Shown here: one piece after another, positions 157-48,553 of the stretch | How positions within the stretch are numbered: the first letter of the stretch is position 1 | How the letters are laid out: each line of letters begins with the position of its first letter | IMG/VR virus record: IMGVR_UViG_3300023171_000018 | Span: 1 to 49,211 of that record | Origin: a virus | Taxonomy: Duplodnaviria > Caudoviricetes | Reading direction: 5' to 3' (one strand) | Length of the DNA stretch: 49,211 nt | Notes under the pieces: generated by a model | The model's input: the letters and a program-made list of their open reading frames with translations, nothing else | Told to the model about the DNA's origin: nothing | Databases searched by the model: none | Program-made: the position numbers and the translations under genes

Positions 157-846
157 TTACCAGCCCTCCAAGGGAAAATCCATATAGACATTGACTTGCC
201 TACGAATCTCATTGTGGTGAGGTCGACCCTGACCGTAGCCAGCCTGATACGTCAACCTACCAAACCACCGCCAACCATCACCAACAGCACGAGTGCCCTG
301 ATGGAAAGCATTGCAATCAAAATGTACTAGCTGATTGGAAGGGACCTGCTCCCTAGTAAAGACACCATCTCGGATGTCCTCCTCTACTCGGTGAGTCCAA
401 TCAGCATAGACTTTGCCATCGACGTGAGGATAATCGGCACTCCCGACAGCGAACTCAGTAGGACAAATGTCACCGTTGACTAATGCTAGGATGTGCTTTG
501 CATGATACTCAGGCGTGTCATAGTTAGGCTGACCATCGCCACGGCTACGAGGGACATCGTCATGATGCCAACCCGGAATAGCAGGCCACCACCCCTTCAT
601 CAGCATATGAACTCGACTGTCAAAACAGAATGTACTGTCATAGCCGAAGTAAGGACTGTTCCATCCGAACTGAATAGGATCACCTAGTGCTGCCTGAAGA
701 AAGGCCCGAGTAATAGGTCCACCATACTCATAAGCGAAGGAGGGTTTGGAGGAGAAGAACATCGTCTCATTCTTTACCTCTGTCTGAGTAAAATCAGGCA
801 GCTTTTCACCAAGACGATACTGACTATTTATTGGATACATTTTCAT
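157..846 (-). CDS. 2OG-Fe(II) oxygenase-like protein
   Basis: PGWHHDD (HxD), distal FH and WRWFGR motifs of the double-stranded beta-helix fold; GGAGG RBS. Confidence 0.75.
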   Translation of the reverse strand: MKMYPINSQYRLGEKLPDFTQTEVKNETMFFSSKPSFAYEYGGPITRAFLQAALGDPIQFGWNSPYFGYDSTFCFDSRVHMLMKGWWPAIPGWHHDDVPRSRGDGQPNYDTPEYHAKHILALVNGDICPTEFAVGSADYPHVDGKVYADWTHRVEEDIRDGVFTREQVPSNQLVHFDCNAFHQGTRAVGDGWRWFGRLTYQAGYGQGRPHHNEIRRQVNVYMDFPLEGW

Positions 847-917
847 ATCAACCTCCCTCCTTAGGAGACACCTTAGGAAATAGAGAACAATTAATGATTA
901 ATCAATTTTAATCAATC

Positions 918-958
918 ATCCTTTGAACCTATTATAACAGATTTTAATTTGTTGTCAA
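918..958 (-). promoter_or_regulatory. sigma70-type promoter TTGACA-N16-TATAAT with extended -10 (TGn)
   Basis: -35 at 953-958, -10 at 931-936, followed by AGGTTCAAAGGAT; upstream of the oxygenase and replication genes. Confidence 0.85.
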
Positions 959-1131
959 CCCCCTTTGTACGACTCGATCCAATATCCTACGGCGTCATCC
1001 TCCAAAGCGAGGAAGGACATCGCCCCTCTCCGATCGATGTAAGGTACTCGTAGGACACTTCCGTCTTCATACTTGATACAGAGAGTCTTAGGTTCTCCGT
1101 GCTCTACTGCGGGTAGGACATCGATGTCCAC
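955..1131 (-). CDS. Hypothetical protein, 58 aa (not in ORF track)
   Basis: GTG start directly after the previous stop; MDIDVLPAVEHGEPKTLCIKYEDG...ESYKGG. Confidence 0.6.
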   Translation of the reverse strand: MDIDVLPAVEHGEPKTLCIKYEDGSVLRVPYIDRRGAMSFLALEDDAVGYWIESYKGG

Positions 1132-1194
1132 TTAGAGGTCCTTCGGCTTCGGACCAAGACCGTTGAGATATCGGATGTAATCTGCGTCGCTCAC
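1132..1194 (-). CDS. 20-aa peptide MSDADYIRYLNGLGPKPKDL
   Basis: AAGGAG RBS; GTGA overlap with the ATP-grasp stop codon. Confidence 0.55.
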   Translation of the reverse strand: MSDADYIRYLNGLGPKPKDL

Positions 1195-1976
1195 TGAATG
1201 TCTCCTTTGAAGAATTTGGCATAGTCCTCCACCGTCTGGCCTTCGAGACCGGGGGCGGTGTTGATTTCGAGGACATATGCACGATTCTGCTTTTCGTTAT
1301 AGATTACGTCGACTGCACCGAAGTCAAGACCGGACGCATCGAAGGATGAAATCGCCGACTCAATGACACACTGCGGTGCTTCAAAACCTTCTCGGGTATA
1401 GACAAAACCGTTGGAATGATTTCGAATTTCCCAATTAGGGTCGGTGCAATCGAGACGACGGGCTTTCCGCTGAACCGCGACAACAACCGTTGCTCCAGTG
1501 CCGTCAACGATCCGCTTCCCGAGATGGACACGATATTCATCCTTTTTCTTTTGATACTTCACATACAGTTGACACGGTACTACTTCTTCCGGAGTTCGCG
1601 CCAGTACGATACCAGCCCCAGAATGACCGCTAAGAATAGTACGGCATACGATAGGATAAGCGTCAGCCGGGATGTCTTCCGACGACGTCCAGAACTGGGG
1701 TATGACATTACTACACTCCTGTTGCATAACCTGAAAGAACGTAAGCTTGTCGCTGGCTTGACGAATACTGTTGGGAAGATTAAGAATCTGAGACGGATGT
1801 CCTACAGGCCAGTGAACCAACGACGGATTGCTGTTACCCCAGTTGATGACAATGTCACCTTCCCGGGGCTTATAACTGCTGCCCTCCAAACGGAGAATCT
1901 TACCTCCAAGCTTCTCGGCCAATGCCTTGGCGGACTTCGAACCCTGTTTGTAAGGGAGAATGCGATACCGTACCAT
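1191..1976 (-). CDS. ATP-grasp ligase (RimK/YheCD-like, phiEco32-type)
   Basis: INWG, GHSGAGI, EYRVH, LDFGAVDVI and VLEINTAPGL motifs. Confidence 0.9.
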   Translation of the reverse strand: MVRYRILPYKQGSKSAKALAEKLGGKILRLEGSSYKPREGDIVINWGNSNPSLVHWPVGHPSQILNLPNSIRQASDKLTFFQVMQQECSNVIPQFWTSSEDIPADAYPIVCRTILSGHSGAGIVLARTPEEVVPCQLYVKYQKKKDEYRVHLGKRIVDGTGATVVVAVQRKARRLDCTDPNWEIRNHSNGFVYTREGFEAPQCVIESAISSFDASGLDFGAVDVIYNEKQNRAYVLEINTAPGLEGQTVEDYAKFFKGDIQ

Positions 1977-1978
1977 GT

Positions 1979-3133
1979 TTATTCCTCTTCGTCTGGGTCG
2001 TAGTCTTCTTCGGGTTCGTAATCATCTTCGACCTCTTCCTCTTCAGGGGGAGTCTCAGCAAACGGATTAAGCCATGGCGTCGGCGTCGGTACTTGCGCTG
2101 CTGCCTGTGCCCAAGCTGTGTTCAGAGTCGGAGAGATATACTGAGCTTCGTCATAAATCATATGACTTGGCATAGGGGCACCGATGTTGGCATAAGCCTG
2201 CTGCAACGGGCTCATCTTCTTCTTATTACGACCGAAGGGATCAGTCGACCGAGTCACCGGCTTGTACCGACTCCAGTCACGACAGTAACAGAGGTCCTGT
2301 GCCAGCCGAATACCTTCGTACATCGACTGTCGAATGGCGTCGTCGTTCATCGAGACCGAGGCACGGACGGTATCATAGTGCTCACCAAGTACACCACGGA
2401 GGTAGTCGATGGGGTCATTACCGGAGAAATTCTCAGTGATACCACGGGGATCGGGATATTCGGCGGACAAATTGTAGATGCGTTCGAGGACACCTACCCA
2501 CTGTACGACTGTGCCGGGGTCAGTGACACCACGGAGGCTACGAATCTCCAGTGAACCGAACTTAATCAGCGCCTGAGTATTCATACCGCTATAATGAAGA
2601 CCCTCGGTCAGCTCAGTACGACCGTCGTTGACGATCCACTTCTTGATCTTCGAGACGATTGCCGGAGCATCCTTCGCACGGAGACAAAAGAGGTTGCCGA
2701 CACGGTGATCGCCACACCACTCAGTCAGGATCTCCTCAAGTGAGAAGTACAATGCGAGGAAGGACGTCAGCCGAGGAAGATGGAAGGTCTGGACGTTGAG
2801 GTGGACGTGAACCGAAGTCCGATTCGAGTCGTCGAGGACGGTACCGTAATCAGCGAGAGTCTTATACAAATCGAAGACGGCGTCCTTGACTTCCTTGAAT
2901 GCGATCGGAGATTTGAGGACGTATTCGGCATTGTCCTTACCCCTCAACGAACCGTCATGGGTATAGTTCCACAGCGGAGGGAGGAGATTGTTCTGCTTCG
3001 GAAACTTGTTCCCTTCACACTCAATCTCGATACCGATCTCACCCTTCGTCGGATGCTTGCCGAGAATGGTAAGGACGTCAAAGCCCTCTTGGTCATAGTT
3101 CAGATCGGGTACGAAGAACTTCTCGTTATGCAT
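1979..3133 (-). CDS. Putative amidoligase (COOH-NH2 ligase, glutamine-synthetase-like fold)
   Basis: GIEIECE, HDGSLRG..AEYV, SVHVHLN and GSLEIR motifs; ATG 3133 chosen on RBS; acidic C-terminal tail. Confidence 0.85.
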   Translation of the reverse strand: MHNEKFFVPDLNYDQEGFDVLTILGKHPTKGEIGIEIECEGNKFPKQNNLLPPLWNYTHDGSLRGKDNAEYVLKSPIAFKEVKDAVFDLYKTLADYGTVLDDSNRTSVHVHLNVQTFHLPRLTSFLALYFSLEEILTEWCGDHRVGNLFCLRAKDAPAIVSKIKKWIVNDGRTELTEGLHYSGMNTQALIKFGSLEIRSLRGVTDPGTVVQWVGVLERIYNLSAEYPDPRGITENFSGNDPIDYLRGVLGEHYDTVRASVSMNDDAIRQSMYEGIRLAQDLCYCRDWSRYKPVTRSTDPFGRNKKKMSPLQQAYANIGAPMPSHMIYDEAQYISPTLNTAWAQAAAQVPTPTPWLNPFAETPPEEEEVEDDYEPEEDYDPDEEE

Positions 3134-3152
3134 AAATCTATCCTTACTTCGA

Positions 3153-3932
3153 TTACTTGCCGCGAACCTTGATATCGCCGAAGACACCAAGCTCAGCAAC
3201 CGCTTCCTTGCAGTGATTAAAGTTGCGGCCAATAGTAATAAGACTGAGATCATGATTAGGAAGAGTGCCAATGACTTCAGCCTTGTATGCGACGAACATG
3301 ATGTCCAACGGTCCTCGCATGATAGCGAACTGCCGATGAAATGCAGCGCCTTCGTTAGCTACTCGGTCGTCTGCGAGAGCCTTGAGACATTCTTCAGGGG
3401 TCGGATAGTCGTTGACGATAGTCCGAGCGAGTTGGATACTGTCGAGGCTGCACGACTGACGCATCGGACGACCATCCTTCGGAAGGATCGAGACAGAGGA
3501 GACGTTGAGCATCTGCTGACCGAGCCCCTGAAGCGTATTCCGGGTCGGCTGACGCTCGACGTACATCACAGTCGATCCGACATTCACCATACCGAGGGGG
3601 AAGGGACGGAACTTGTTGAAGAGGGGGCTGTTCATCATCTTCCGGATGACACCGCAGTCGTCCTTCTGCTTCTCCAGCCACGCATCCATCTTGTCACCGA
3701 CCGACTCGCCCGGGCCTTCATCATGCCAATCATACGGCATACCGTGGATACGACGACGAGCACAGCCATCCTTGTGGAGAAGGTCGTCGAGGTACATACG
3801 GAAGATACCGTCACTCTTGTGGTCAGCGATACAGAGGACGTAATACGGCTTACCGTCATAGAGGATGACAGTGTTCTGGAGCCGCATCCGAGCCTCTTTG
3901 ATGGTCTCGTAGTAATTCGTAAAAGAAGGCAT
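3153..3932 (-). CDS. Hypothetical protein within the amide-ligase cluster
   Basis: 259-aa ORF with RBS, between the two ligases. Confidence 0.75.
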   Translation of the reverse strand: MPSFTNYYETIKEARMRLQNTVILYDGKPYYVLCIADHKSDGIFRMYLDDLLHKDGCARRRIHGMPYDWHDEGPGESVGDKMDAWLEKQKDDCGVIRKMMNSPLFNKFRPFPLGMVNVGSTVMYVERQPTRNTLQGLGQQMLNVSSVSILPKDGRPMRQSCSLDSIQLARTIVNDYPTPEECLKALADDRVANEGAAFHRQFAIMRGPLDIMFVAYKAEVIGTLPNHDLSLITIGRNFNHCKEAVAELGVFGDIKVRGK

Positions 3933-3942
3933 CTTTTATTCC

Positions 3943-4782
3943 TTAAAAAGAAATCATCTGGATCGGATTGAAGAAGTTGCTAGTGAGTTCGTCATGCAAC
4001 TTGCTCGTGTCAATCGACTGAATGAGGAGGTCGTTGAAGACAGCCGGTGCGCTCTCAGGGCGGAAGTTCGTCCGCATGTCATAGATTGCCTTCTGCATCC
4101 GGTTCCAGACCTGAAGCCGAGTAGCACCAGTCGAGAGCCAGAAGTTCGAGAGGACACGGTACTCGACACCATAGTCCTTGAACCGACATGCCCCGGCCTT
4201 GCCATAGAGGGTACGACGACGGGCGTCAGGGTCCTTGATGACCGACCACGCACCGAGATACCAATCCAGCTGTTTGACGAGGTCACGGGCGTTCTGGACG
4301 TACTCCATATCACTGACCTCGGCATCTTCCGTCCAACCGAAGTGGAGGTGACCTGAAGCAGTACGGAGACGCTCGTTACCTTCCGTGTTCGGCGGAGGAT
4401 TGATGGTCCCCGTCCATGCATTGAAGTCGGGGTTGCAGCCGAGAATCTTCGCGACGTCCGGTGCATCACCCCATGCCTTCTCGGAGAACTCGACAGCGGG
4501 GACAGCGGAGAGTTTGTAGCCACGAGGAAGCATTGCTCGAAGCTGGGCGAGGACCTGAGTGATGTTCCGATTGAAATCGCTGTAGTTCGTCACGGGATCG
4601 ATGTTGAACTCGGCTGCCATGCCATCGACTTGGACGGCACCGAAGTCGACCTTATAGGGACTTTCCTTCGTACCCGGGATCAACCCCTCGGCGGTGACAT
4701 ATTCACCATCGGGATTGAGGACGAAGAGTTCGGGATCGCAGCCGAACTTGAACCCGGGGAGTGCTTCAAGGACAGTAGTCAT
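3943..4782 (-). CDS. phiEco32-like COOH-NH2 ligase type 2
   Basis: GCDPELF, QVDGMAAEFN, GCNPDFNAW, RTASGHLHFG, RRTLYGKAG and GVEYRVLSNFW motifs. Confidence 0.9.
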   Translation of the reverse strand: MTTVLEALPGFKFGCDPELFVLNPDGEYVTAEGLIPGTKESPYKVDFGAVQVDGMAAEFNIDPVTNYSDFNRNITQVLAQLRAMLPRGYKLSAVPAVEFSEKAWGDAPDVAKILGCNPDFNAWTGTINPPPNTEGNERLRTASGHLHFGWTEDAEVSDMEYVQNARDLVKQLDWYLGAWSVIKDPDARRRTLYGKAGACRFKDYGVEYRVLSNFWLSTGATRLQVWNRMQKAIYDMRTNFRPESAPAVFNDLLIQSIDTSKLHDELTSNFFNPIQMISF

Positions 4783-4814
4783 GTTATTTCCTTCTTAGTC
4801 TTTAGGGAGTTGAA

Positions 4815-5999
4815 TTAGCAAACCTGCTGCTGGTTATGCCAAGGGAGCATCGGAAGAGGCTTCTCATCCTTCTTCTGCTCTTCAGCGAACTTCTGCATCT
4901 TAATCGGCGATGCATAGACACGGTTCGTATCGCGACTACTGCAGCACGATCCGATGACCTGTTCGTTGATCTCGAAGATAACGATACCCTTGTCCCGATA
5001 ACCTACGCTACGGGAACAGAACGAGCATCCGTAACGAGCCATCTGATTGAACGTACCTTCGTCGATGTAATCTCCGAATGGCTTAGCACCGGTCGTGTCT
5101 AGCTTCATCAGGACGGGAGTAACTGTAGAGGTCTTCGGTGGAGTCGTCGAGGTTGAGGTCGACGCCCCAGACACGTTCCCAGTAGTCTGCCGAGGAAAAT
5201 TTCCATAATTCCCACCACCATAGACTTTAACCGGGGCAGGCTCCTTTCCCTTCAGCTCCTTGACACGAGGCTTAGGACGACCTTCGAACCCCTTCTTCAG
5301 TTCGTCGAGAGAGTAGCGGTAATGCCAATCCTCGGTCGTCTGGAAGAACGAATAACCTTGTTCGTTGCAGAAGAGTTCGTACTTGTCCTTCTCCGGCGAA
5401 GCGGCACAGGCAGCACGGATCATCCAATGCTCCGAAGCCCACAGAAGGAGCTTGAAGTCCTTGTCGTAAGCGTACCAAAACGGACGCTCCTTGTTGCGGA
5501 GGAAGTTCAGCGTCCCCTCCTTCGCATCATGCCACACGAGAGCCCAAGCACCCTGTAGGAGCTTCACTGTGTCGTCGATGCCGATCTTCTCGATGCAGCC
5601 AAAGATTGCTTCGCTGTCAGTCCCGGTCTTCTCACCGAGGACCTTCTGAAGCTCGTCCCACGACTCCGTCGTCAGCGTCCCGTTATGAGCACCGGTGATG
5701 TGACCACGCTGATAGGGATGGGCGTTGACGTCGTTGACAGCACCCTTCGTGGCGGCGCGGTTGTGACCGATGAACGCCTTGCAGTTGTAGGCGTTGGCAG
5801 CGGCCTTGTACCGGAGGGTGTCGAAGAGGTTGATGGGATTACTGGCGATCTTTGCGATCTTGACTTCGGTGTTGTCGTCCTTGACACAGGCGATACCAGT
5901 CGAATCAGGACCACGGAAGTAGTCATTCATCAACAGTCGCTTCATCGTGTTCTCGTCGCGGAGCTTCAGGGCTCCTGCTAGACCTACGTGGCCGCACAT
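4815..5999 (-). CDS. Class II (Ntn) glutamine amidotransferase
   Basis: N-terminal MCG nucleophile; RGPDSTG, GHNRAAT, NAHPY, HNGTL and TDSE motifs. Confidence 0.92.
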   Translation of the reverse strand: MCGHVGLAGALKLRDENTMKRLLMNDYFRGPDSTGIACVKDDNTEVKIAKIASNPINLFDTLRYKAAANAYNCKAFIGHNRAATKGAVNDVNAHPYQRGHITGAHNGTLTTESWDELQKVLGEKTGTDSEAIFGCIEKIGIDDTVKLLQGAWALVWHDAKEGTLNFLRNKERPFWYAYDKDFKLLLWASEHWMIRAACAASPEKDKYELFCNEQGYSFFQTTEDWHYRYSLDELKKGFEGRPKPRVKELKGKEPAPVKVYGGGNYGNFPRQTTGNVSGASTSTSTTPPKTSTVTPVLMKLDTTGAKPFGDYIDEGTFNQMARYGCSFCSRSVGYRDKGIVIFEINEQVIGSCCSSRDTNRVYASPIKMQKFAEEQKKDEKPLPMLPWHNQQQVC

Positions 6000-6844
6000 T
6001 ACTTAGTCTCCTGCTTATTTTCGATGACAACTGCATCATCAATGACCATTGTCTTTGCGGCGATTTCAGCCCAATGTTCGTTACGGGCGTCGAGTACCGA
6101 GTCCTTGATACGACGGACACGGCCCTTGAGTGCGAGATCGGGGTTTTCGAGGAAGAACTCGTTCATCCGGTGCATCGTCCACTTCGCGAACTCACTGTAT
6201 CCACGGTACTCAGGATGACCCTGAACACCGAAGCAGCATGTATCACGATAGAAGTAGGCTTCGACGTCTGGACGGCACCCAGCGAGGCTCTGAGTCGGTG
6301 TCAGCCACCGGAAATCAGCCTTGCTGCTCGTAGCGATGACTTCCATGCCACCTTCAGGGTTTGCAATGCACGCCTGATGATGAACAGACGACACTTTCTC
6401 GATCAGCTTCCGACCCTTCAAATCGTACATCGAGTGGTCGCCGTTGTGGTTATTGATGTCCTGATACAGACGACCACCATTCATGACGTGAAGGAACTGA
6501 GCCCCACGGCAGACACCGAACATCGGAATGCCTTCGTCGATACACTGGGTGTAGACGTCAATATCCGCTGCGTCCCGTTCTTCGTCCCACTGTACCGAGG
6601 CATGGGGTTCTTGACCGTAGAGAGCGGGATTGACGTCCTGACCACCAGTGAAGATGACGACGTCAGCGTCCTCAGGGAGTTCGACACGAGTGCAGCGTGC
6701 AGGGACAAGCATCTCGGCGAAGTTACCGATCTCGTATTGGTCACCGACGATGCAGACTTCCAGCCACAACTCCGGTGTATCAGCACTCCGAGTGTCACGG
6801 ACGATCGTCATCGACTTCTTCATCTCCAGAACATTGTCAGTCAT
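5999..6844 (-). CDS. Class I glutamine amidotransferase / peptidase C26 (gamma-glutamyl hydrolase-like)
   Basis: FTGGQDVNPALYG, GVCRGAQ, SVHHQ and GVQGHPE; start uncertain (ATG 6844 or GTG 7090). Confidence 0.88.
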   Translation of the reverse strand: MTDNVLEMKKSMTIVRDTRSADTPELWLEVCIVGDQYEIGNFAEMLVPARCTRVELPEDADVVIFTGGQDVNPALYGQEPHASVQWDEERDAADIDVYTQCIDEGIPMFGVCRGAQFLHVMNGGRLYQDINNHNGDHSMYDLKGRKLIEKVSSVHHQACIANPEGGMEVIATSSKADFRWLTPTQSLAGCRPDVEAYFYRDTCCFGVQGHPEYRGYSEFAKWTMHRMNEFFLENPDLALKGRVRRIKDSVLDARNEHWAEIAAKTMVIDDAVVIENKQETK

Positions 6845-7241
6845 CTTTGAGCATCCATCCATTCCAAGGGTATTGGTCGAGCCCGGAGGCGTCTTCCCAG
6901 TCGATGTCTTTGACTGGTTCGAGGTAATCGTCGTCGGAGTCAGTGGCAACCCCGTCACCATCGAAACTGGCCCCTGCTTCGCTTCCCGCTGCATCCTTAC
7001 CGCTTCCGGTGACTCGGCGGACACAAGGACTGTTTCGCGGATCTTCGACGCATATTCCCGCCGACGCTTCTTTCGTTGTTTCCGAGACACTGAGGCCCCT
7101 TTCTCTTTCTTGCCGTTTGATAACAGCTTCCGTAAGTTCAGCGATAACCATCCGCGCATTTTCGTGCGCGCCCCAATAATTGAGGCAAAGGGCATCATAA
7201 AGGACGTCCTCTTCGGTTTCGACGTATCTACGCCTTGCCAT
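6837..7241 (-). CDS. Hypothetical acidic protein
   Basis: 134-aa ORF coupled by a TGATG overlap to the upstream gene. Confidence 0.55.
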   Translation of the reverse strand: MARRRYVETEEDVLYDALCLNYWGAHENARMVIAELTEAVIKRQERERGLSVSETTKEASAGICVEDPRNSPCVRRVTGSGKDAAGSEAGASFDGDGVATDSDDDYLEPVKDIDWEDASGLDQYPWNGWMLKDD

Positions 7242-8035
7242 CAGCCGTATTCTTCGTCGATGTAATCATCCTCTGGATTGTAGATTGCCGCGGGTGCAAT
7301 GGACACCGCCTTCCCGAATGGATCGATCGATGCCTTCTTCGGCTCACGAGCCAACCGTGCTTCCTTCGGCTCAGGGGCAGCACCCGGGAGACGACGACCA
7401 GCGAGAATGACAGGAGCACCAGCAGCCTTCAGCTGAGCCTCAGTCATGATCTTAGCAGGGCCAATGACTTCCCACTGCTTCAACTGGACTGCTTGGACGT
7501 TATCAGGCGACATATCACCGCTGTAGGGGTCAGGGAGGTCCGTCCATGCCTTCGGAGGCGTCAGCGTATCCTTGATCGCGCCCTTGCCGATGTTCCGGAA
7601 AAGACCGAAGAGGTAGTTCGGATGAGGACTTGTCTCTGCGAACGTACCCGGCTTCGTCACCGTCTTCGGTCCGGTATAGACACTGTTGTCGGTCGTCCGG
7701 ATGAACTCGAAGCCGTTCTCCTTCAGAATGGCAAGCCACTTCTTACCGTGACTGCCACTGATCTGTTCACTTGTGAGGACAGCGAGGAAGACATGGTTCG
7801 GCATATCCGATTCACTGAAGGTACCGATGCGGAGACGACTGTTGAAGATGTCACGGTAAGTGGGACCGACGAACGCTTCACCACCGCTTTTGATGATGGG
7901 GTTGCCACCGTCACCGCCTACGAGCTGGATGCTGGCCTTGGCATCGGGGTCGAACTTAAAGTTCTGGATGATGCACATCGCACAGCAGCCCCAGTAGCCA
8001 CCGGGGATCGAACTTCCGAACCTCAGGAACTCCAT
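7241..8035 (-). CDS. Hypothetical protein, possible GNAT-like fold
   Basis: GGYWGCC and EQ..KWLAILKENGF motifs shared with 8718-9179. Confidence 0.7.
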   Translation of the reverse strand: MEFLRFGSSIPGGYWGCCAMCIIQNFKFDPDAKASIQLVGGDGGNPIIKSGGEAFVGPTYRDIFNSRLRIGTFSESDMPNHVFLAVLTSEQISGSHGKKWLAILKENGFEFIRTTDNSVYTGPKTVTKPGTFAETSPHPNYLFGLFRNIGKGAIKDTLTPPKAWTDLPDPYSGDMSPDNVQAVQLKQWEVIGPAKIMTEAQLKAAGAPVILAGRRLPGAAPEPKEARLAREPKKASIDPFGKAVSIAPAAIYNPEDDYIDEEYG

Positions 8036-8229
8036 TACTTGTCTCCAAACTTGATGGTTGCAGGGGTCGAGGGTGGGACGTAGACACCCTTCACCGCTTC
8101 ATAGAACTCTACGTCATCGAAATCCACGTCACTGTAGTCGTCGGCAAGAGTCTCTAATAGCGCAGTAGACGTGTCACCAGTAGCGAGAACCTCGTCCCAC
8201 CGGATTGCAATGTAAATCTTCTTTGCCAT
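8035..8229 (-). CDS. Hypothetical protein
   Basis: 64 aa, GGAGG RBS, coupled to the next gene. Confidence 0.7.
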   Translation of the reverse strand: MAKKIYIAIRWDEVLATGDTSTALLETLADDYSDVDFDDVEFYEAVKGVYVPPSTPATIKFGDK

Positions 8230-8230
8230 A

Positions 8231-8593
8231 TCAAACCTCCTTCGTCGTAGTCATAACCTTAACGAACTTATCGGTGTCAATGAAAGACGATACGATCTTG
8301 GTGACCGGGACACCTCCTCTCATCAACTTGAACCCGCGCTTTTCAAGTTCGTCACGAGCAGCTCGTGCAACCTTCCACATATCACGGTATTCGGTGGCCA
8401 GCTCTTCGTCGGTCTTCTCCGCCGGAGACACCAGAGCCAGCTCTCCGGGGCTGAATTTCATTGACTCCAGATCCTGAAGATAGATCACTATCTCATTCCC
8501 GTGAGTCCGGATATCTTCGATACGAAGACCCGGCGAGTTCGCCCAACCGCTGTACTTCGGACGGACGATATCACCGACCTTAAACTGTGTCAT
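8231..8593 (-). CDS. Hypothetical protein (FKVGD N-terminus, SH3/KOW-like)
   Basis: 120 aa, AAGGAG RBS. Confidence 0.75.
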   Translation of the reverse strand: MTQFKVGDIVRPKYSGWANSPGLRIEDIRTHGNEIVIYLQDLESMKFSPGELALVSPAEKTDEELATEYRDMWKVARAARDELEKRGFKLMRGGVPVTKIVSSFIDTDKFVKVMTTTKEV

Positions 8594-8603
8594 GATTTTC
8601 TCC

Positions 8604-8644
8604 TTGACAATTATCAGAAAAGTGTTATAATAGGTTCAAAGGAT
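8604..8644 (+). promoter_or_regulatory. sigma70-type promoter, antisense to the surrounding genes
   Basis: TTGACA 8604-8609, N16, TATAAT 8626-8631; 22 nt identical to the 918-939 element. Confidence 0.8.
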
Positions 8645-8717
8645 AGTTCTTAGAAGATAATTGTTAATCATTAATACAAGAAATAACTATCTCCTAGGAA
8701 ATCTCCTAAGGAGGCGA

Positions 8718-9179
8718 CTACTCGTCTTCGTCGCAATCCTCGTCGTCGATAGCCTCAGCATCTTCCTTGCCGGGATAGTTTTCATCGACGTTGAGATGGA
8801 AGACGACACAAGTGTTGCCACTGTTCGAATTGAGATGACGATTGACCTCCTTGAACCCACGGCTGAGGAGTTCAGGTATCCACCGGCTTTGGTCGATCCA
8901 GCTATACTTTGAATTGATCGCGATGACGACTTCAAGGATGTTGCAAGGGCGACGACGCTTCATGTAGTCGATGTAACGGTCGAGGCGAGCCGTCCCCTTC
9001 TCCTCAGGGGCAGCTTCGTGGAAGAACCGAGTATCCGACGTCACCGACGAACCGTTTTGATCTCGGTCATCCTTCGCAATCTGCGGAATAGCGTAGTCTT
9101 TGCTGTCAGGGTTCGTACCCATACTGAAGATAGTCTTGATGCCGCAGCAGAGTCCGCCGTGGAATACGAGTTGCATCAC
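8718..9179 (-). CDS. Hypothetical protein, possible GNAT-like fold
   Basis: HGGLCCG and DQSRWIPELLSRGF..NSNSGN; acidic tail. Confidence 0.7.
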   Translation of the reverse strand: MMQLVFHGGLCCGIKTIFSMGTNPDSKDYAIPQIAKDDRDQNGSSVTSDTRFFHEAAPEEKGTARLDRYIDYMKRRRPCNILEVVIAINSKYSWIDQSRWIPELLSRGFKEVNRHLNSNSGNTCVVFHLNVDENYPGKEDAEAIDDEDCDEDE

Positions 9180-9331
9180 TCGACTCCTTCAAGGGCACGG
9201 ATGCACTGAGCGAGGTCCTCGATCTGATCACGCTTGGTTTCAAGCTGGCCGAGGAGGTTAGCGACCTCAACCTCCCGAAGTTTTTTCGAGTCTCGCATCT
9301 GTTTGAGATGCTGTTCACGATAGACACCCAT
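9176..9331 (-). CDS. Hypothetical coiled-coil protein, 51 aa (not in ORF track)
   Basis: MGVYREQHLKQMRDSKK...RALEGVE; GGAG RBS; overlaps both neighbours. Confidence 0.65.
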   Translation of the reverse strand: MGVYREQHLKQMRDSKKLREVEVANLLGQLETKRDQIEDLAQCIRALEGVE

Positions 9332-9711
9332 CAATAGTCTCCCGTAGCTAGCTCCGAGGCCGTTCCCCGGGCTTTCTTCGTATATTCGAGCCAGTCACCC
9401 GACTTAACCTCAGGACGACTGTTCATCGTGTCGTTATAGGTGTAGACGAAAAAGGGGCCGTTGCCGAAGTCTACCTCTTCCCGGAGATAGAGGGACGTCT
9501 CAGGACGATTGGAGTCGTACCCTTCGTACCTGTCGAGCTGACCGAGCTTCCTGTCATCGACCTCGATGATCTCGACAGACACTCCCGGCGACACTGAGCC
9601 GTCGAGGACGAGGCCGGGATACGAACCGAGGTCATAGATACGACCGGGGATGACAACGACCGGGAACGAACCGGGACGAAGGGTGCCATAGACGGCGACC
9701 TTGTGCTTCAC
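9331..9711 (-). CDS. Gamma-glutamylcyclotransferase (AIG2-like)
   Basis: VAVYGTLRPG, DLGSYPGL, LDRYEG, Y.R and SGDW motifs. Confidence 0.9.
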   Translation of the reverse strand: MKHKVAVYGTLRPGSFPVVVIPGRIYDLGSYPGLVLDGSVSPGVSVEIIEVDDRKLGQLDRYEGYDSNRPETSLYLREEVDFGNGPFFVYTYNDTMNSRPEVKSGDWLEYTKKARGTASELATGDY

Positions 9712-10166
9712 TTCTCGCCTCCCTTGTCATCACGGTACTTCTGCCCCTGATCCTTGGGCAACTGATCGTCGAGGTAGCCGTTGATAACGGCACGAATCTT
9801 CGTCATCTCAGGGGTCTTCAGAACCTGTTCACCGGCTTCACTGCCAGCGATGAGGTAGAATGTGTCCTTCGACGGCACGAGGAACGATGCACCCCAGAGT
9901 ATGAAGAAAAGCGGAGAGAAGTACCCGAGACGACGTAGGCTCAATCCGAGTCTATACACCGACGTATCCTCTTTCTCGACCTTGAGATACTTCTGTTCCG
10001 TACCGCTCCACCGCTCATCGATCTTAGCCGAGTCCTCTATCTTCGATATCCCACAAAAGAAGATGAAAGCGAATCCGACGAACAGTAGGAAGCTGAGAAT
10101 GCACAGCCACGTCGACACTTTCGGCAGGACATCAGCCCAATACAGGAGCCAAGAGAGCCGGTTCAC
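9708..10166 (-). CDS. Membrane protein (two TM segments)
   Basis: Two hydrophobic stretches; GTG 10166 overlaps the upstream stop. Confidence 0.7.
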   Translation of the reverse strand: MNRLSWLLYWADVLPKVSTWLCILSFLLFVGFAFIFFCGISKIEDSAKIDERWSGTEQKYLKVEKEDTSVYRLGLSLRRLGYFSPLFFILWGASFLVPSKDTFYLIAGSEAGEQVLKTPEMTKIRAVINGYLDDQLPKDQGQKYRDDKGGEK

Positions 10167-10333
10167 TGGTTCGCTCCAACGATCTGAGGCGACCAACCAC
10201 CTTCAGCCGATGTCCGGATCATGAGCTGAGGCTCGATCAAGGAATGGTGGCGTATGCGACCGAGACGGATGAGTCGGATGCGTTCACGGCGGGCCTGATC
10301 CTTTTCGGCGCGCTTCCAGAGATATTCGTTCAT
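10163..10333 (-). CDS. Hypothetical basic protein, 56 aa
   Basis: AAGGA RBS before ATG 10333 (MNEYLWKRAEKDQARRER...). Confidence 0.6.
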   Translation of the reverse strand: MNEYLWKRAEKDQARRERIRLIRLGRIRHHSLIEPQLMIRTSAEGGWSPQIVGANQ

Positions 10334-10343
10334 GCTGATTTCC

Positions 10344-10568
10344 TTAGAAAGAGAGTTCGAGGGTGTCACCCTCATAAATGGGAGTCCGGGCCGAATTCTC
10401 AGAGAGAACCTGTTCGAGGGACTTCGCCAGTTTCTGATCCTGTACGATCCCACTCGAATTGATGTAGGTCGTACCGTCACCGTTCTGGAGATAGTAGCCG
10501 CGATCGCCGCAGCCGACGACAGCTATGAGCTTACGGGGAGGACTTGCCTCCGTGATTTTGATCTTCAT
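10344..10568 (-). CDS. Hypothetical protein, 74 aa
   Basis: TGATG coupling with the glycosylase gene (MKIKITEASPPRK...). Confidence 0.6.
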   Translation of the reverse strand: MKIKITEASPPRKLIAVVGCGDRGYYLQNGDGTTYINSSGIVQDQKLAKSLEQVLSENSARTPIYEGDTLELSF

Positions 10569-11080
10569 CACAAATACTTTCTGATTTCGGAGTACCACGA
10601 CGGCTTGCCGCGATATGTCCACAAAGGTTTCCGTGAGTCGAGATTGACCCACTTATTCATAAGACAATACTGGTAGTTCGTGAAGACGTCACCACGTTGC
10701 TGCCCCGACGAATCGAAGGAGAAGACAGGCTTCGTTTCTGTTCCGGGGAAGCAGTCACCAAAGACGTGGAGGTGATTGAAGGCGAGTTCGATGACGTCCC
10801 GTGATTTGTGGTAGCGATCGAAACGGAATTGGTATTCATCCGTCAACGCCCTGCCGTGATCGACCAACCAAAGGAAGTTCGCGAGGTCCTTACGAGCCCA
10901 GACAGAGCAGGGATGGAAGACATGAGTCGAGCCATACAAACCCTTGGCGACATCCGGATATACGGTCCGGAGTGCCGTCGAAAGGAGTTGGGCTGTCTCC
11001 AAAGCCATCTTAATCACTCGCTTGTCGTCCTGAACCTGAGCACAGGCGACGGGATCATTGCTTGTGAGAAAGATGTTCAT
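10568..11080 (-). CDS. Pyrimidine dimer DNA glycosylase / endonuclease V family protein
   Basis: MNIF...DKRVIKMALETAQLLSTA, TH..HPCSVWAR and EY..RF..YHKS motifs. Confidence 0.8.
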   Translation of the reverse strand: MNIFLTSNDPVACAQVQDDKRVIKMALETAQLLSTALRTVYPDVAKGLYGSTHVFHPCSVWARKDLANFLWLVDHGRALTDEYQFRFDRYHKSRDVIELAFNHLHVFGDCFPGTETKPVFSFDSSGQQRGDVFTNYQYCLMNKWVNLDSRKPLWTYRGKPSWYSEIRKYL

Positions 11081-15031: not shown

Positions 15032-15064
15032 TTGACTTTTGTCACTAAATCGAGTATAATAGGT
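15032..15064 (+). promoter_or_regulatory. sigma70-type late promoter TTGACT-N17-TATAATAGGT
   Basis: -35 at 15032-15037, -10 at 15055-15060; upstream of terS. Confidence 0.8.
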
Positions 15065-46773: not shown

Positions 46774-46932
46774 TTAATCTCCCAACAAAATCAGCTCATC
46801 ATATACTCTCTTAGCAATACTTGTTTCCCACTCTTCTTTGAAAGTTGTCATAGGAGAACAAGCTGAGGTGTAACTCCCCCACCCTTCCTCAAAAGCATGT
46901 AGAATCTCATACGCAATTGATCGATTATCCAT
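46774..46932 (-). CDS. Hypothetical protein, 52 aa
   Basis: ATG 46932 overlapping the helicase end. Confidence 0.55.
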   Translation of the reverse strand: MDNRSIAYEILHAFEEGWGSYTSACSPMTTFKEEWETSIAKRVYDELILLGD

Positions 46933-48553
46933 TTTGACCGAACTGATCGAACTCGTGTCCTGCTCCTGAGCCACCGGCTTCATACTCCTCTGCTAATTCA
47001 CGATTAAGTTCTTCAAGCCTACCAGTCATCTCGTTGTAAAAGAGATAGCAAGCTGGGCCTGTCCGTCCGAACTCTCGGTTCTTTTCGACAGTAATACGAG
47101 TGACATTCCGACGCCATTCGTTGACGTCTTTCTTATCACGCTCCAGCCGGATGACAGCGTTACTCACCTGCTCCGGACCTGCGGAACCACGGACCTGACC
47201 CTGCCGGTTGATGTGGATGACACAGACACAGCAGATGTCAAGATTCATGGTCAAAGTCTTCAGCTTCGTAGTGATCTCGTCTAGCTGTTTCCGTTCATCA
47301 CCGCTTTGATCAGATACAATAATACTAAGATGGTCGACAAAGACGTAGCGGCAGCCAAGTGCGGCCATATGTCGGATCTTCGCGAGTACGGAATCGATAG
47401 AACTACTGCCGAAGTGGTCATAGATAACCACGCGATCGGTATCAAGTACAGCACGGTAAGCATCTGAAAGCTCCTGTGGTGTCCGCTCCACGTCGGGGAA
47501 GTGGTACGGTTTGTTGTTGTGGATGGACATCAAACCCAAAGCTGTCTTACGCTTAGGTTCCTCGAAGTGAAGGAAACCTACGCCAGCTTTTTCCTCAATA
47601 AGCTCAGGATCAGTGAGGAGCTTATACTGGATTTCTTTGATGAAACTCGTCTTACCGACACCGGTGTCAGCTGTGATGAGAACAAACTCAGAAGTCCTAA
47701 GTCCGTAGAGGAGACCATTGAGCCCCTCCCACGGGTAAGGTACACTTTTGGGCTCAGTGTAAGTAAGGATTTCTTCCAATAGCCTCGGATCAGTTCCAAG
47801 CTGGAGACCGTCGGGCATGAAAGCAGGTGCTCGGAACCATTCATGGATGTATTCACTCTGCCACCCCTTCTTGAGATAGTCATTAGCGTCCTTCGCTTTA
47901 CTTAGTTCGAGGATACGAACCTTCCCGGGCTCGAAGAGCGAGGCGATTTCCTCCGCTGCCTTCTTACCGGGGTCGTCGTTGTCGAAATTGATGACGATCT
48001 TGTTGAAGCCGTTGAGATATTCGAAATTGTCAATGACTTGCTTCTTCGCTGACGAAGCCGACGTGACACCGACGTTAGCATACCGGGCACCAGTGAGATG
48101 CCAAGCACTCATGGCGTCATAGTACCCCTCGGTGAGGGTCACAGATCCCTTAGGATCGACAGGGAACAGTGGTTGACCGAAGAGCTTGGCTCCTTGGACG
48201 ATGCCTTCGAACTTAAACTTCTTGTCAGGAAAGCGGAGCTGGTTCGCTACGTGTTTATCTTCTTGGTCGAAGAGGGGGAAGACAGCTTCGTATGTCGGAT
48301 TGTCGCTCGTTACCTGATACTTCTTCACTGCACTAGCAGGAATGGCTCGGTCACGGATAGGTGACGGGTTGCCCTCCAACAACGGATTGAAAGAGAACGT
48401 CCTTCGTGCGGGTTCGTGGTCTATCGTATTATCTCCCTTGCTTGGTGTGTTACAGGCGAAGCAGAACGTATGACCATCTGTGTATAACGAATTACCGTCC
48501 GACGATCCACACGCTTCGCAGGGTATGTGTCGGACAAATTCGCTGTCACTCAC
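46925..48553 (-). CDS. DNA primase-helicase (T7 gp4-like)
   Basis: CEACGSSD Zn finger, TEGYYDA/FDND TOPRIM, ADTGVGKT, VDHLS and RGS motifs. Confidence 0.95.
   Translation of the reverse strand: MSDSEFVRHIPCEACGSSDGNSLYTDGHTFCFACNTPSKGDNTIDHEPARRTFSFNPLLEGNPSPIRDRAIPASAVKKYQVTSDNPTYEAVFPLFDQEDKHVANQLRFPDKKFKFEGIVQGAKLFGQPLFPVDPKGSVTLTEGYYDAMSAWHLTGARYANVGVTSASSAKKQVIDNFEYLNGFNKIVINFDNDDPGKKAAEEIASLFEPGKVRILELSKAKDANDYLKKGWQSEYIHEWFRAPAFMPDGLQLGTDPRLLEEILTYTEPKSVPYPWEGLNGLLYGLRTSEFVLITADTGVGKTSFIKEIQYKLLTDPELIEEKAGVGFLHFEEPKRKTALGLMSIHNNKPYHFPDVERTPQELSDAYRAVLDTDRVVIYDHFGSSSIDSVLAKIRHMAALGCRYVFVDHLSIIVSDQSGDERKQLDEITTKLKTLTMNLDICCVCVIHINRQGQVRGSAGPEQVSNAVIRLERDKKDVNEWRRNVTRITVEKNREFGRTGPACYLFYNEMTGRLEELNRELAEEYEAGGSGAGHEFDQFGQNG

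Follow-up and report, generated by a model that had tools for sequence, protein, structure and literature searches.

A clade-specific variant of the phiEco32/LUZ24/RIO-1 amidoligase cassette in a phage genome, with a predicted ligase subunit, a half-GNAT pair and a possible role in gamma-glutamyl amide chemistry

What does a lytic phage gain from a run of amide-bond ligases and gamma-glutamyl-cleaving enzymes that takes up close to a fifth of its genome? The question is raised by IMG/VR record IMGVR_UViG_3300023171_000018, which we analyzed over its whole length of 49,211 nucleotides (the window). An earlier note, made from the sequence alone, had read positions 157–9711 as one expanded biosynthetic cluster ending in an oxygenase, and its estimate of nearly a fifth of the genome was accurate: the interval covers 19.5%, or 17.4% without the oxygenase. 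Sequence comparison shows that the cluster is real and that it is a known phage cassette in a clade-specific variant. To its description we add a predicted ligase subunit (U3), a family of half-GNAT proteins and the exclusion of the oxygenase.

Read along the minus strand from 9711 to 1191, the cassette genes are co-oriented, tightly packed and mostly preceded by ribosome-binding sites, and all the genes named earlier are there. Their order is gamma-glutamyl cyclotransferase (GGCT), a 51-residue open reading frame (ORF), g153, two small ORFs, g264, a 134-residue ORF, class I glutamine amidotransferase (GATase)/C26, class II GATase, COOH.NH2 ligase, U3, Amidoligase_2 and ATP-grasp ligase; the four interleaved small ORFs, listed further below, are a correction to the earlier note. 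The class I GATase most likely starts at 6844 rather than 7198, and the amidoligase most likely at 3133. The nine conserved genes are as follows.

9331–9711, minus strand: GGCT/AIG2-like gamma-glutamyl cyclotransferase, 126 residues (PF06094, E 4e-15)
8718–9179, minus strand: g153, short half-GNAT-like protein with a CC motif (paralogue of g264; Atlas structure matches)
7241–8035, minus strand: g264, long half-GNAT-like protein with a C-terminal extension (AlphaFold2 (AF2) model, fold comparison)
5999–6844, minus strand: class I GATase / peptidase C26, PuuD-like gamma-glutamyl hydrolase (PF07722)
4815–5999, minus strand: class II (N-terminal nucleophile, Ntn) GATase with a C-terminal four-cysteine Zn-ribbon-like motif (PF13522)
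3943–4782, minus strand: type-2 COOH.NH2 ligase, glutamine-synthetase-like (GS-like) fold (PF14395, phrog_3815)
3153–3932, minus strand: U3, orphan protein with an N-terminal SH3/Tudor-like barrel, predicted amidoligase subunit (phrog_11055)
1979–3133, minus strand: Amidoligase_2, GS-like carboxylate-amine ligase (PF12224, phrog_7469)
1191–1976, minus strand: RimK-like ATP-grasp ligase (phrog_2599)

The family assignments of the six enzymes are backed by Pfam and PHROG matches. The class I GATase matched PF07722 (E 1e-23), PDB entries 3fij, 7d4r and 6vtv (PuuD), and gamma-glutamyl-CDP-amidate hydrolase, and the class II GATase matched PF13522 (E 5e-17). For the COOH.NH2 ligase, PF14395 was matched at E 4e-7 (30.1 bits against a cut-off of 25) and phrog_3815 at 2e-75; the amidoligase matched phrog_7469 at 2e-60 and PF12224 at 1e-4, just over the cut-off. 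The ATP-grasp protein matched phrog_2599 (E 1e-69). Its NCBIfam matches, all below cut-off, rank MptN (4e-6) and the RimK family (2e-5) ahead of D-Ala-D-Ala ligase (1.5e-3). It matched RimK in the PDB at E 0.008 and fell short of the RimK-family cut-offs (TIGR00768, 24 bits against 143; PF08443, 18.9 against 21), suggesting that it works like a RimK alpha-L-glutamate ligase but is not a member of that family.

Conservation was assessed in alignments of the window proteins with 51–81 distinct relatives per enzyme from the fetched loci, at a threshold of at least 95%, for residues that we take from general knowledge of the families to be catalytic. Conserved at this level were Y8-G9, L11 and E63 of GGCT (51 homologues); the C112-H210-E212 triad of the class I GATase (81); C2, R29, R81, N106, G107 and D128 of the class II GATase (78); E18, E58, H145, H147, R200, E207 and R209 of the COOH.NH2 ligase (76); E36, E38, E40, E70, H109, H111, E196 and R198 of the amidoligase (70); and K77, R112, E237 and N239 of the ATP-grasp protein (63). 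The window copies of all six enzymes hold the expected residues, so the objection from missing catalytic residues, which the earlier note had itself raised, does not apply. The four-cysteine motif follows the GATase domain of the class II enzyme in 57 of 60 full-length relatives. No hydrophobic or membrane segment was found in the cassette proteins (maximum KD19 1.2), and no RNA family was listed for the cassette region.

Linkage among the genes was scored in two sets of loci, with counts that include near-duplicate contigs. The first set, searched with tblastn, comprised 48 loci with a COOH.NH2 ligase (46 seeded by the ligase, plus PA11 and KZY1), several of them cut by contig ends. ATP-grasp was found in 46, class II GATase in 45, amidoligase and class I GATase in 41 each, U3 in 28, GGCT in 26, g153 and g264 in 17 each, and the oxygenase in 1. 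The second set was seeded with g264 in metagenomes; 93 loci were confirmed, the best 80 kept and the window's own contig dropped, leaving 79. There, a core gene was present in 40/40 loci with at least 2.5 kb downstream and all six in 22/22 with at least 7.5 kb, while g153 was found in 36 and GGCT in 30 of the 37 loci with at least 2 kb upstream. All nine genes are present in 34 of the 125 loci of the two sets combined, every time (34/34) in the order of the window. Judged from these sequences, the cassette genes co-occur far beyond chance, and the possibility that they do not travel together, also raised in the earlier note, can be set aside. Relatives of the COOH.NH2 ligase were matched in 319 of 50,697 phage records, and in cellular genomes on one contig only, which looks viral.

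According to papers that cite it, a study by Iyer et al. in 2009 predicted a phiEco32/LUZ24-type amidoligase module. All the marks of the phiEco32/LUZ24/RIO-1 cassette that we tested are present in the window: a PF14395 ligase, a U3-type gene before PF12224, co-oriented ATP-grasp, GATase and GGCT genes, and a location, in a podovirus-like genome, with early genes on one side and the primase/helicase-polymerase block on the other. By these sequence marks the enzyme set, GGCT included, is the published ‘peptidoglycan-modification’ cassette, and the link to phiEco32-type phages drawn earlier holds. PMC5498523 describes a seven-gene version with two amidoligases, an ATP-grasp protein, GGCT and an amidotransferase, and the peptidoglycan idea is repeated or cited as a hypothesis in passages of PMC11945000, PMC10580990 and PMC4819975. 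Other passages report that the PSA-HP1 copy is expressed immediately after infection (PMC7082346), and suggest a role in nitrogen metabolism for phage ZRK32, the addition of which raised Pseudomonas growth on ammonium (PMC10945688). An amidoligase and a GATase are also described in a virus assigned to archaea (PMC11706807); we gave this host call no weight because the virus also encodes an amidase and holins. What PMC6209634, PMC3890496 and PMC9960094 say of the cassette in the passages concerned is annotation only. Our literature searches found no paper identifying a product of the cassette, in agreement with the earlier note.

The two GNAT-like proteins, g153 and g264, are paralogues, as had been proposed. 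Direct BLAST comparison of the two was not significant, and profiles built from their relatives join them. We found 166 relatives; none of the 120 listed has a Pfam domain, the half-GNAT family has no PDB sequence match, and tblastn of both proteins against the 50,697 phage records gave no match. In a tree of 37 sequences, a starred branch (99/98) has all 14 long forms on one side, and a weaker one (92/83) does the same for the 14 short forms. This split is compatible with an old duplication, although long branches call for caution. Both proteins point to a GNAT-like fold. The AF2 model of g264 had a predicted local distance difference test score (pLDDT) of 86.5. VIA fold comparison matched its residues 1–150 with the C-terminal half of GNATs and with GNAT-like domains that are themselves truncated, among them AtNUDT7 (Z 7.1; root-mean-square deviation (rmsd) 2.8 over 87 residues), NUDT6 (6.8), the GNAT 1yvo (6.8), antizyme (6.3) and AcrVA5 (4.7). 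All Z values were below 8, and Foldseek E values were only about 0.1. The Atlas model of g153 is poor (pLDDT 0.48), and its ten matches are all GNATs (TM-score by query 0.44–0.49).

Sequence motifs define the family further. A CC motif occurs in 153 of 154 members, and a motif-B-like helix ending in L-x-x-x-G-F in 32 of 33 short and 121 of 121 long members. The acetyl-CoA loop R/Q-x-x-G-x-G/A was absent from its expected place between strand 4 and helix 3; the pattern occurs after strand 5 in 1 of 33 short members and before the CC motif in 16 of 121 long ones. The models thus suggest GNAT-like proteins whose acetyltransferase activity is doubtful.

Relatives of the pair reach beyond this clade. 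A remote one inside the cassette of locus L023 matches 99 phage records, nearly all LUZ24-like, and in Ka1 such a relative is annotated as an N-acetyltransferase about 3.2 kb upstream of the ligase. hhalign joins the half-GNAT and LUZ24-type families (probability 93.8, E 1.8e-7), although this profile had already served to pick out L023, at a weak E value. The g264 model independently retrieves UFV-P2 and tf proteins at E 0.07–0.09. By profile search, 24 of 56 loci hold at least one half-GNAT member and 19 at least two, most of which, including three LUZ24-type loci, were seeds. Within a large uncultured clade the half-GNAT pair is a constant component of the operon, and LUZ24-like phages have a remote single-copy relative. 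Further half-GNAT look-alikes in distant cassettes did not score above reversed-sequence decoys and were not counted. These are tandem ORFs of similar appearance (CC/CG...N-x-x-Q...L-x-x-x-G-F) at L023 6085–6540, L035 9042–9497 and 9529–9984, L041 3974–4420 and 4411–5046, and L040 2081–2404.

The orphan gene U3 lies no more than about 170 bases upstream of the amidoligase gene in 58/58 distinct pairs; it was found alone in 3 loci, at contig ends, and the amidoligase without a detected U3 in 5. Its AF2 model (pLDDT 94.5) has an N-terminal SH3/Tudor-like barrel with fold matches at Z below 5, and no whole-protein fold match was listed (Z below 5, with residues beyond about 141 barely covered). 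We co-folded U3 with residues 1–305 of the amidoligase, the one of the three ligases that the co-folding covered, and obtained an interface score (ipSAE) of 0.75, against 0.01 for the best of three controls. In calibration, 116 of 157 solved complexes reached the ipSAE mark, as did 2 of 215 mismatched pairs; these rates apply only roughly to runs with our own alignments. At least 95% of contacts agreed between runs, and partner pLDDT was at least 86. On the U3 side the interface includes R127, R131 and G136, three of the five invariant residues, and L113, P129 and Q135, three of the eight near-invariant ones; on the amidoligase side it includes the invariant F149 and Y181 and the near-invariant G146, L148, L151, D155 and A156. 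Recall of a solved complex by the model is unlikely, since neither protein has a significant sequence relative in the PDB. U3 is thus predicted to be a non-catalytic subunit of the amidoligase that binds through residues invariant in both families. Genes in the U3 position of PaP4 and EcoN5 resemble it weakly (hhalign E 0.017 and 0.003). We rejected U3 as a mimic of elongation factor P (EF-P): EFP_N matches were weak and occurred in 4 of 31 members (best E 0.03), the HEX-1/EF-P rows from Foldseek (E at least 0.1) reflect a generic SH3/KOW barrel, and the loop lysine is not kept in distant members.

The remaining features of the interval are four small ORFs, which vary between relatives, two promoter elements and the oxygenase gene.

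9176–9331, minus strand: accessory 51-residue coiled-coil-like ORF (from sequence; one relative, in locus L057)
8604–8714, plus strand: perfect sigma70-type promoter with an A+T-rich hairpin leader, antisense to the cassette
8231–8593, minus strand: 120-residue ORF without a known family, inserted variably (a few close loci have relatives)
8035–8229, minus strand: 64-residue ORF of no known family, variable insertion
6837–7241, minus strand: 134-residue ORF of no known family, variable
846–958, minus strand: perfect sigma70-type promoter and leader of the next transcription unit
157–846, minus strand: putative 2-oxoglutarate (2OG)-Fe(II)/PhyH-like oxygenase, phrog_1843, outside the cassette

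The element at 846–958 starts the next unit, which consists of the oxygenase gene and then the replication genes across the genome end. Its promoter, at 958–931, scores 12/12. A sense promoter scoring 11–12/12 follows the ATP-grasp gene in many relatives, and the same type heads the replication genes. Among 57 loci just one has the oxygenase gene after the ATP-grasp gene, and among 44 just one has it ahead of GGCT. Its family, phrog_1843, matches 471 phage records, mostly T4-like phages and actinobacteriophages; in T4-like JS10 the homologue has unrelated neighbors. Its GC content at third codon positions (0.45) is the lowest of the region (0.52–0.70 in cassette genes), and a scan of viral contigs seeded with it confirmed no relative. 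Given its own promoter, its position after the ATP-grasp gene in just 1 of 57 loci and its frequency among unrelated phages, the sequence evidence makes the oxygenase a mobile passenger outside the cassette and does not support the tailoring role that had been proposed for it. The 2OG-Fe(II) assignment itself is only a lead. HxD...H-type motifs are present (HHDD, FHQG and WFGR, identical in both of the two aligned relatives) and an Atlas feature match to a PhyH-bearing cluster scored 0.86, while searches of Pfam, NCBIfam and the PDB gave no match. A GWHHDDVPR motif is strongly conserved in phrog_1843, which carries no annotation.

The plus-strand element at 8604–8714 is an inverted copy of that at 846–958 and points antisense into g153 and GGCT; its leader ends in a Shine-Dalgarno-like sequence with no start codon following. 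An antisense RNA made from it could shut off the 5’ portion of the cassette; alternatively, the element could be left over from a mobile gene. The same promoter type also occurs at 15032 and 44388, and we rejected an invertible segment between the two elements, which are two copies of the phage's own promoter type. Antisense 12/12 promoters were also seen at differing cassette junctions in six relatives (L006 6642 and 11020; L007 7662; L015 7104; L017 3926; L018 4104; L019 6388 and 6947), some of them before short ORF starts that, judged by eye, resemble the N-termini of HNH homing endonucleases.

What, then, might the nine genes do? We tentatively favor a cytoplasmic writer and eraser of gamma-glutamyl amides, with a small, possibly acylated, glutamate-containing amide as its product early in infection. 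A GS-fold ligase would place glutamate through its gamma-carboxyl on an amine, or ammonia derived from the class II GATase on a carboxyl, and the RimK-like ATP-grasp protein would add a further alpha-linked residue, most likely glutamate. The C26, Ntn and GGCT enzymes could supply ammonia or take off the glutamyl group; its removal by the C26 hydrolase and GGCT might serve protection and deprotection or turnover. The half-GNAT pair may acylate or bind the amine of the same substrate, and the predicted barrel of U3 could select the acceptor. As acceptor we prefer a small cytoplasmic amine, be it a polyamine, an amino acid or a cofactor, to a lysine in a protein or a precursor of peptidoglycan. 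Ligases paired with gamma-glutamyl removers follow the same logic in the Puu, ergothioneine and butirosin pathways. The window offers two GS-fold ligases, one ATP-grasp ligase and three gamma-glutamyl- or glutamine-cleaving enzymes, with residues intact and in a fixed order, and RimK and MptN glutamate ligases rank above D-Ala-D-Ala ligase among the relatives of the ATP-grasp protein. Also in favor of the proposal are the lack of hydrophobic segments in the cassette proteins and the immediate expression of the PSA-HP1 copy (PMC7082346). The suggestion in the earlier note of a small peptide metabolite or of reversible glutamylation is compatible with such chemistry. Polyamine involvement is motivated, rather than evidenced, by two reports: polyamines inhibit several Pseudomonas phages (PMC9992862, the relevant passages of which describe no test of a cassette-bearing phage), and another phage raises polyamines (PMC11898732).

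Several points weigh against this proposal. The amino-acid specificity of the ATP-grasp protein is a guess, because all its family scores lie below cut-off, and a Tudor-like partner subunit would fit a macromolecular target equally well. GGCT, the class I GATase and the GNAT-like genes went undetected in many distant copies and so are not core, and near-duplicate loci mean that the counts overstate independence. Acylation by the half-GNATs is doubtful because the fold match is middling, the top matches include non-catalytic domains (the NUDT6/7 N-domain and antizyme) and the usual loop is missing. Substrate, product and activity are proposals from sequence and models, and our literature searches found none of them in print.

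A possible but doubtful alternative is protein tagging. Here lysines or C-termini of a protein, from the host or the phage, would be glutamylated (and acetylated); U3 would direct the ligase to its target, and the hydrolases would act as erasers. The GS-fold protein ligases PafA and Dop and the protein-acetylating phage GNATs are precedents for it; the RimK-like ATP-grasp protein and the predicted SH3/Tudor-bearing subunit on the amidoligase would suit it, the minimal phage GNAT AcrVA5 is among the fold matches of g264 (Z 4.7), and Rac appears among the matches listed. Set against this, we saw no conserved gene for a small tag or precursor, the small ORFs of the cassette being variable among relatives, and hosts that span Proteobacteria, a cyanobacterium and a crAss-like lineage would demand a very conserved target. 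The published idea of stem-peptide remodeling on cytoplasmic peptidoglycan precursors, which would block superinfection or prepare lysis, we consider unlikely. Such precursors do hold a gamma-glutamyl bond and a free amine; GGCT- and glutamine-type sites, however, should require a free alpha-amino group, which the glutamate of the stem peptide lacks. None of the nine genes encodes a membrane or exported component, and the ATP-grasp protein ranks nearer to glutamate ligases than to D-Ala-D-Ala ligase. Early expression in PSA-HP1 (PMC7082346) suits the idea, and PMC5498523, PMC11945000 and PMC10580990 propose it for the cassette, in passages that give a hypothesis without muropeptide data.

Two further explanations seem to us much weaker. 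Scavenging of glutamate or ammonia from glutathione or gamma-glutamyl pools for phage synthesis, as suggested for ZRK32 (PMC10945688), could use the three hydrolases, but the tests described there used whole phage rather than the genes, and scavenging needs neither three ATP-consuming ligases nor a dedicated partner subunit; we judge it improbable. The most improbable reading is a hypermodification of DNA bases in which products of the oxygenase and GNAT-like genes would do the tailoring. In its favor, the cassette lies just upstream of replication genes, and other phages have DNA-modifying 2OG-Fe(II) oxygenases and GNAT-fold proteins. Yet the oxygenase is unlinked to the cassette, no base-modification family turned up in the 51 proteins scanned, and 6-bp palindromes are strongly avoided in the genome (24 of 64 fall below half of expectation, against 0.6% of other 6-mers), a pattern that fits DNA exposed to restriction and so disfavors a protective modification. 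CCWGG is also strongly avoided genome-wide, with 9 sites and an observed/expected ratio of 0.13 for CCAGG.

Combining writer, eraser and targeting roles, we can also picture a tag-less analogue of ubiquitin logic, though we think it rather unlikely: a two-subunit GS-fold ligase, with the choice of target left to its SH3/Tudor partner, would work alongside a RimK-like elongator, three erasers and a half-GNAT reader or acylator. Such a system would be common to hundreds of lytic phages that are otherwise unrelated, and within minutes of the start of infection it would neutralize or rewrite a host anti-phage amine signal, such as the phage-inhibiting polyamines that accumulate in Pseudomonas, or a conserved host protein. 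Whichever chemistry applies, the cassette is among the larger conserved phage enzyme blocks without an identified product, at up to a sixth of a 49-kb lytic genome. The half-GNAT family is a component missing from current descriptions, although additional components may already be mentioned in Iyer 2009 and Hardies 2013. Removal of the oxygenase narrows the chemistry to look for, and the amidoligase probably needs co-expression with the upstream U3 to be assayed, at least for Zobellviridae-type copies, cultured phages included.

The window is a whole phage genome on one contig (completeness 100) with a 126-nt repeat at both ends. Pfam and PHROG matches identify a P22-like portal and coat, a T7-like polymerase, a primase/helicase and a ribonucleotide reductase, and the best matches of the polymerase, 33% identical, are from pelagiphage HTVC103P, roseophage SIO1 and ICBM1. 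The primase/helicase gene (46925–48553) comes after the cassette, across the end repeat. Because of the polymerase and these other genes, and of a cassette order common to four phages labeled Zobellviridae, we infer that the phage is probably a Zobellviridae-like podovirus. On the other side of the cassette, a gene for a membrane protein (9708–10196, minus strand; phrog_3878, KD19 2.7) overlaps the GGCT start by 4 nt and shifts in position among close relatives, and a pyrimidine-dimer glycosylase-like gene (PF03013, E 4e-4; phrog_624) lies at 10568–11080 on the minus strand.

Among known systems, the closest are the cassettes of the Zobellviridae phages PA11, KZY1, CW02 and Klyazma, which have the same order of class I GATase, class II GATase, COOH.NH2 ligase, U3, amidoligase and ATP-grasp just upstream of replication genes; RIO-1 and PSA-HP1 are grouped with these copies, and GGCT is present in CW02 and PSA-HP1. 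The window proteins are 27–50% identical to those of PA11. In the window, by contrast, GGCT has moved to the front and is followed by the fixed half-GNAT pair, which was not detected in the fetched stretches of the four Zobellviridae phages, those of PA11 and CW02 beginning at the first base of the record. The term ‘expanded’ used in the earlier note is thus apt for the half-GNAT pair and not for the rest: CW02 is already annotated with three ligases, two amidotransferases and GGCT, and GGCT belongs to the published cassette. phiEco32/Kuravirus and LUZ24/PaP3/tf (Bruynoghevirus) have the COOH.NH2 ligase, amidoligase, class II GATase, ATP-grasp and GGCT in common with the window. Their modules differ in gene order and, in the stretches shown, carry no annotation of a class I GATase; LUZ24-like phages have one remote half-GNAT relative about 3–4 kb upstream in place of an in-operon pair. 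Reshuffled cassettes also occur in a Leptolyngbya phage and a crAss-like phage. In the former, Lbo-JY46 (L051 3739–7948), the cassette directly follows genes annotated PncB and PrsA (NAD salvage). Another reshuffled copy, with two class II GATase-like genes and beside a DNA polymerase, lies at L136 6399–13603 on a contig from a Saccharibacteria bin that is probably a misbinned phage.

At the level of folds, residues 1–150 of g264 align with AcrVA5, ornithine decarboxylase antizyme and the NUDT6/NUDT7 N-domain over 80–98 residues (rmsd 2.6–4.0); in contrast to these truncated GNAT-fold domains, to which it is 7–12% identical, it has a family-specific CC motif with no canonical acetyl-CoA loop after it. 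At the level of pathways, PuuA/PuuD, EgtA/EgtC and BtrJ/BtrG each pair a ligase (of GS or gamma-glutamylcysteine synthetase fold, or ATP-grasp) with a C26, Ntn or GGCT remover, and PuuD and EgtC appear among the matches of the cassette proteins, far below family cut-offs. Unlike those pathways, the cassette has no linked transporter or oxidoreductase, and in a lytic phage it combines three ligases with three removers.

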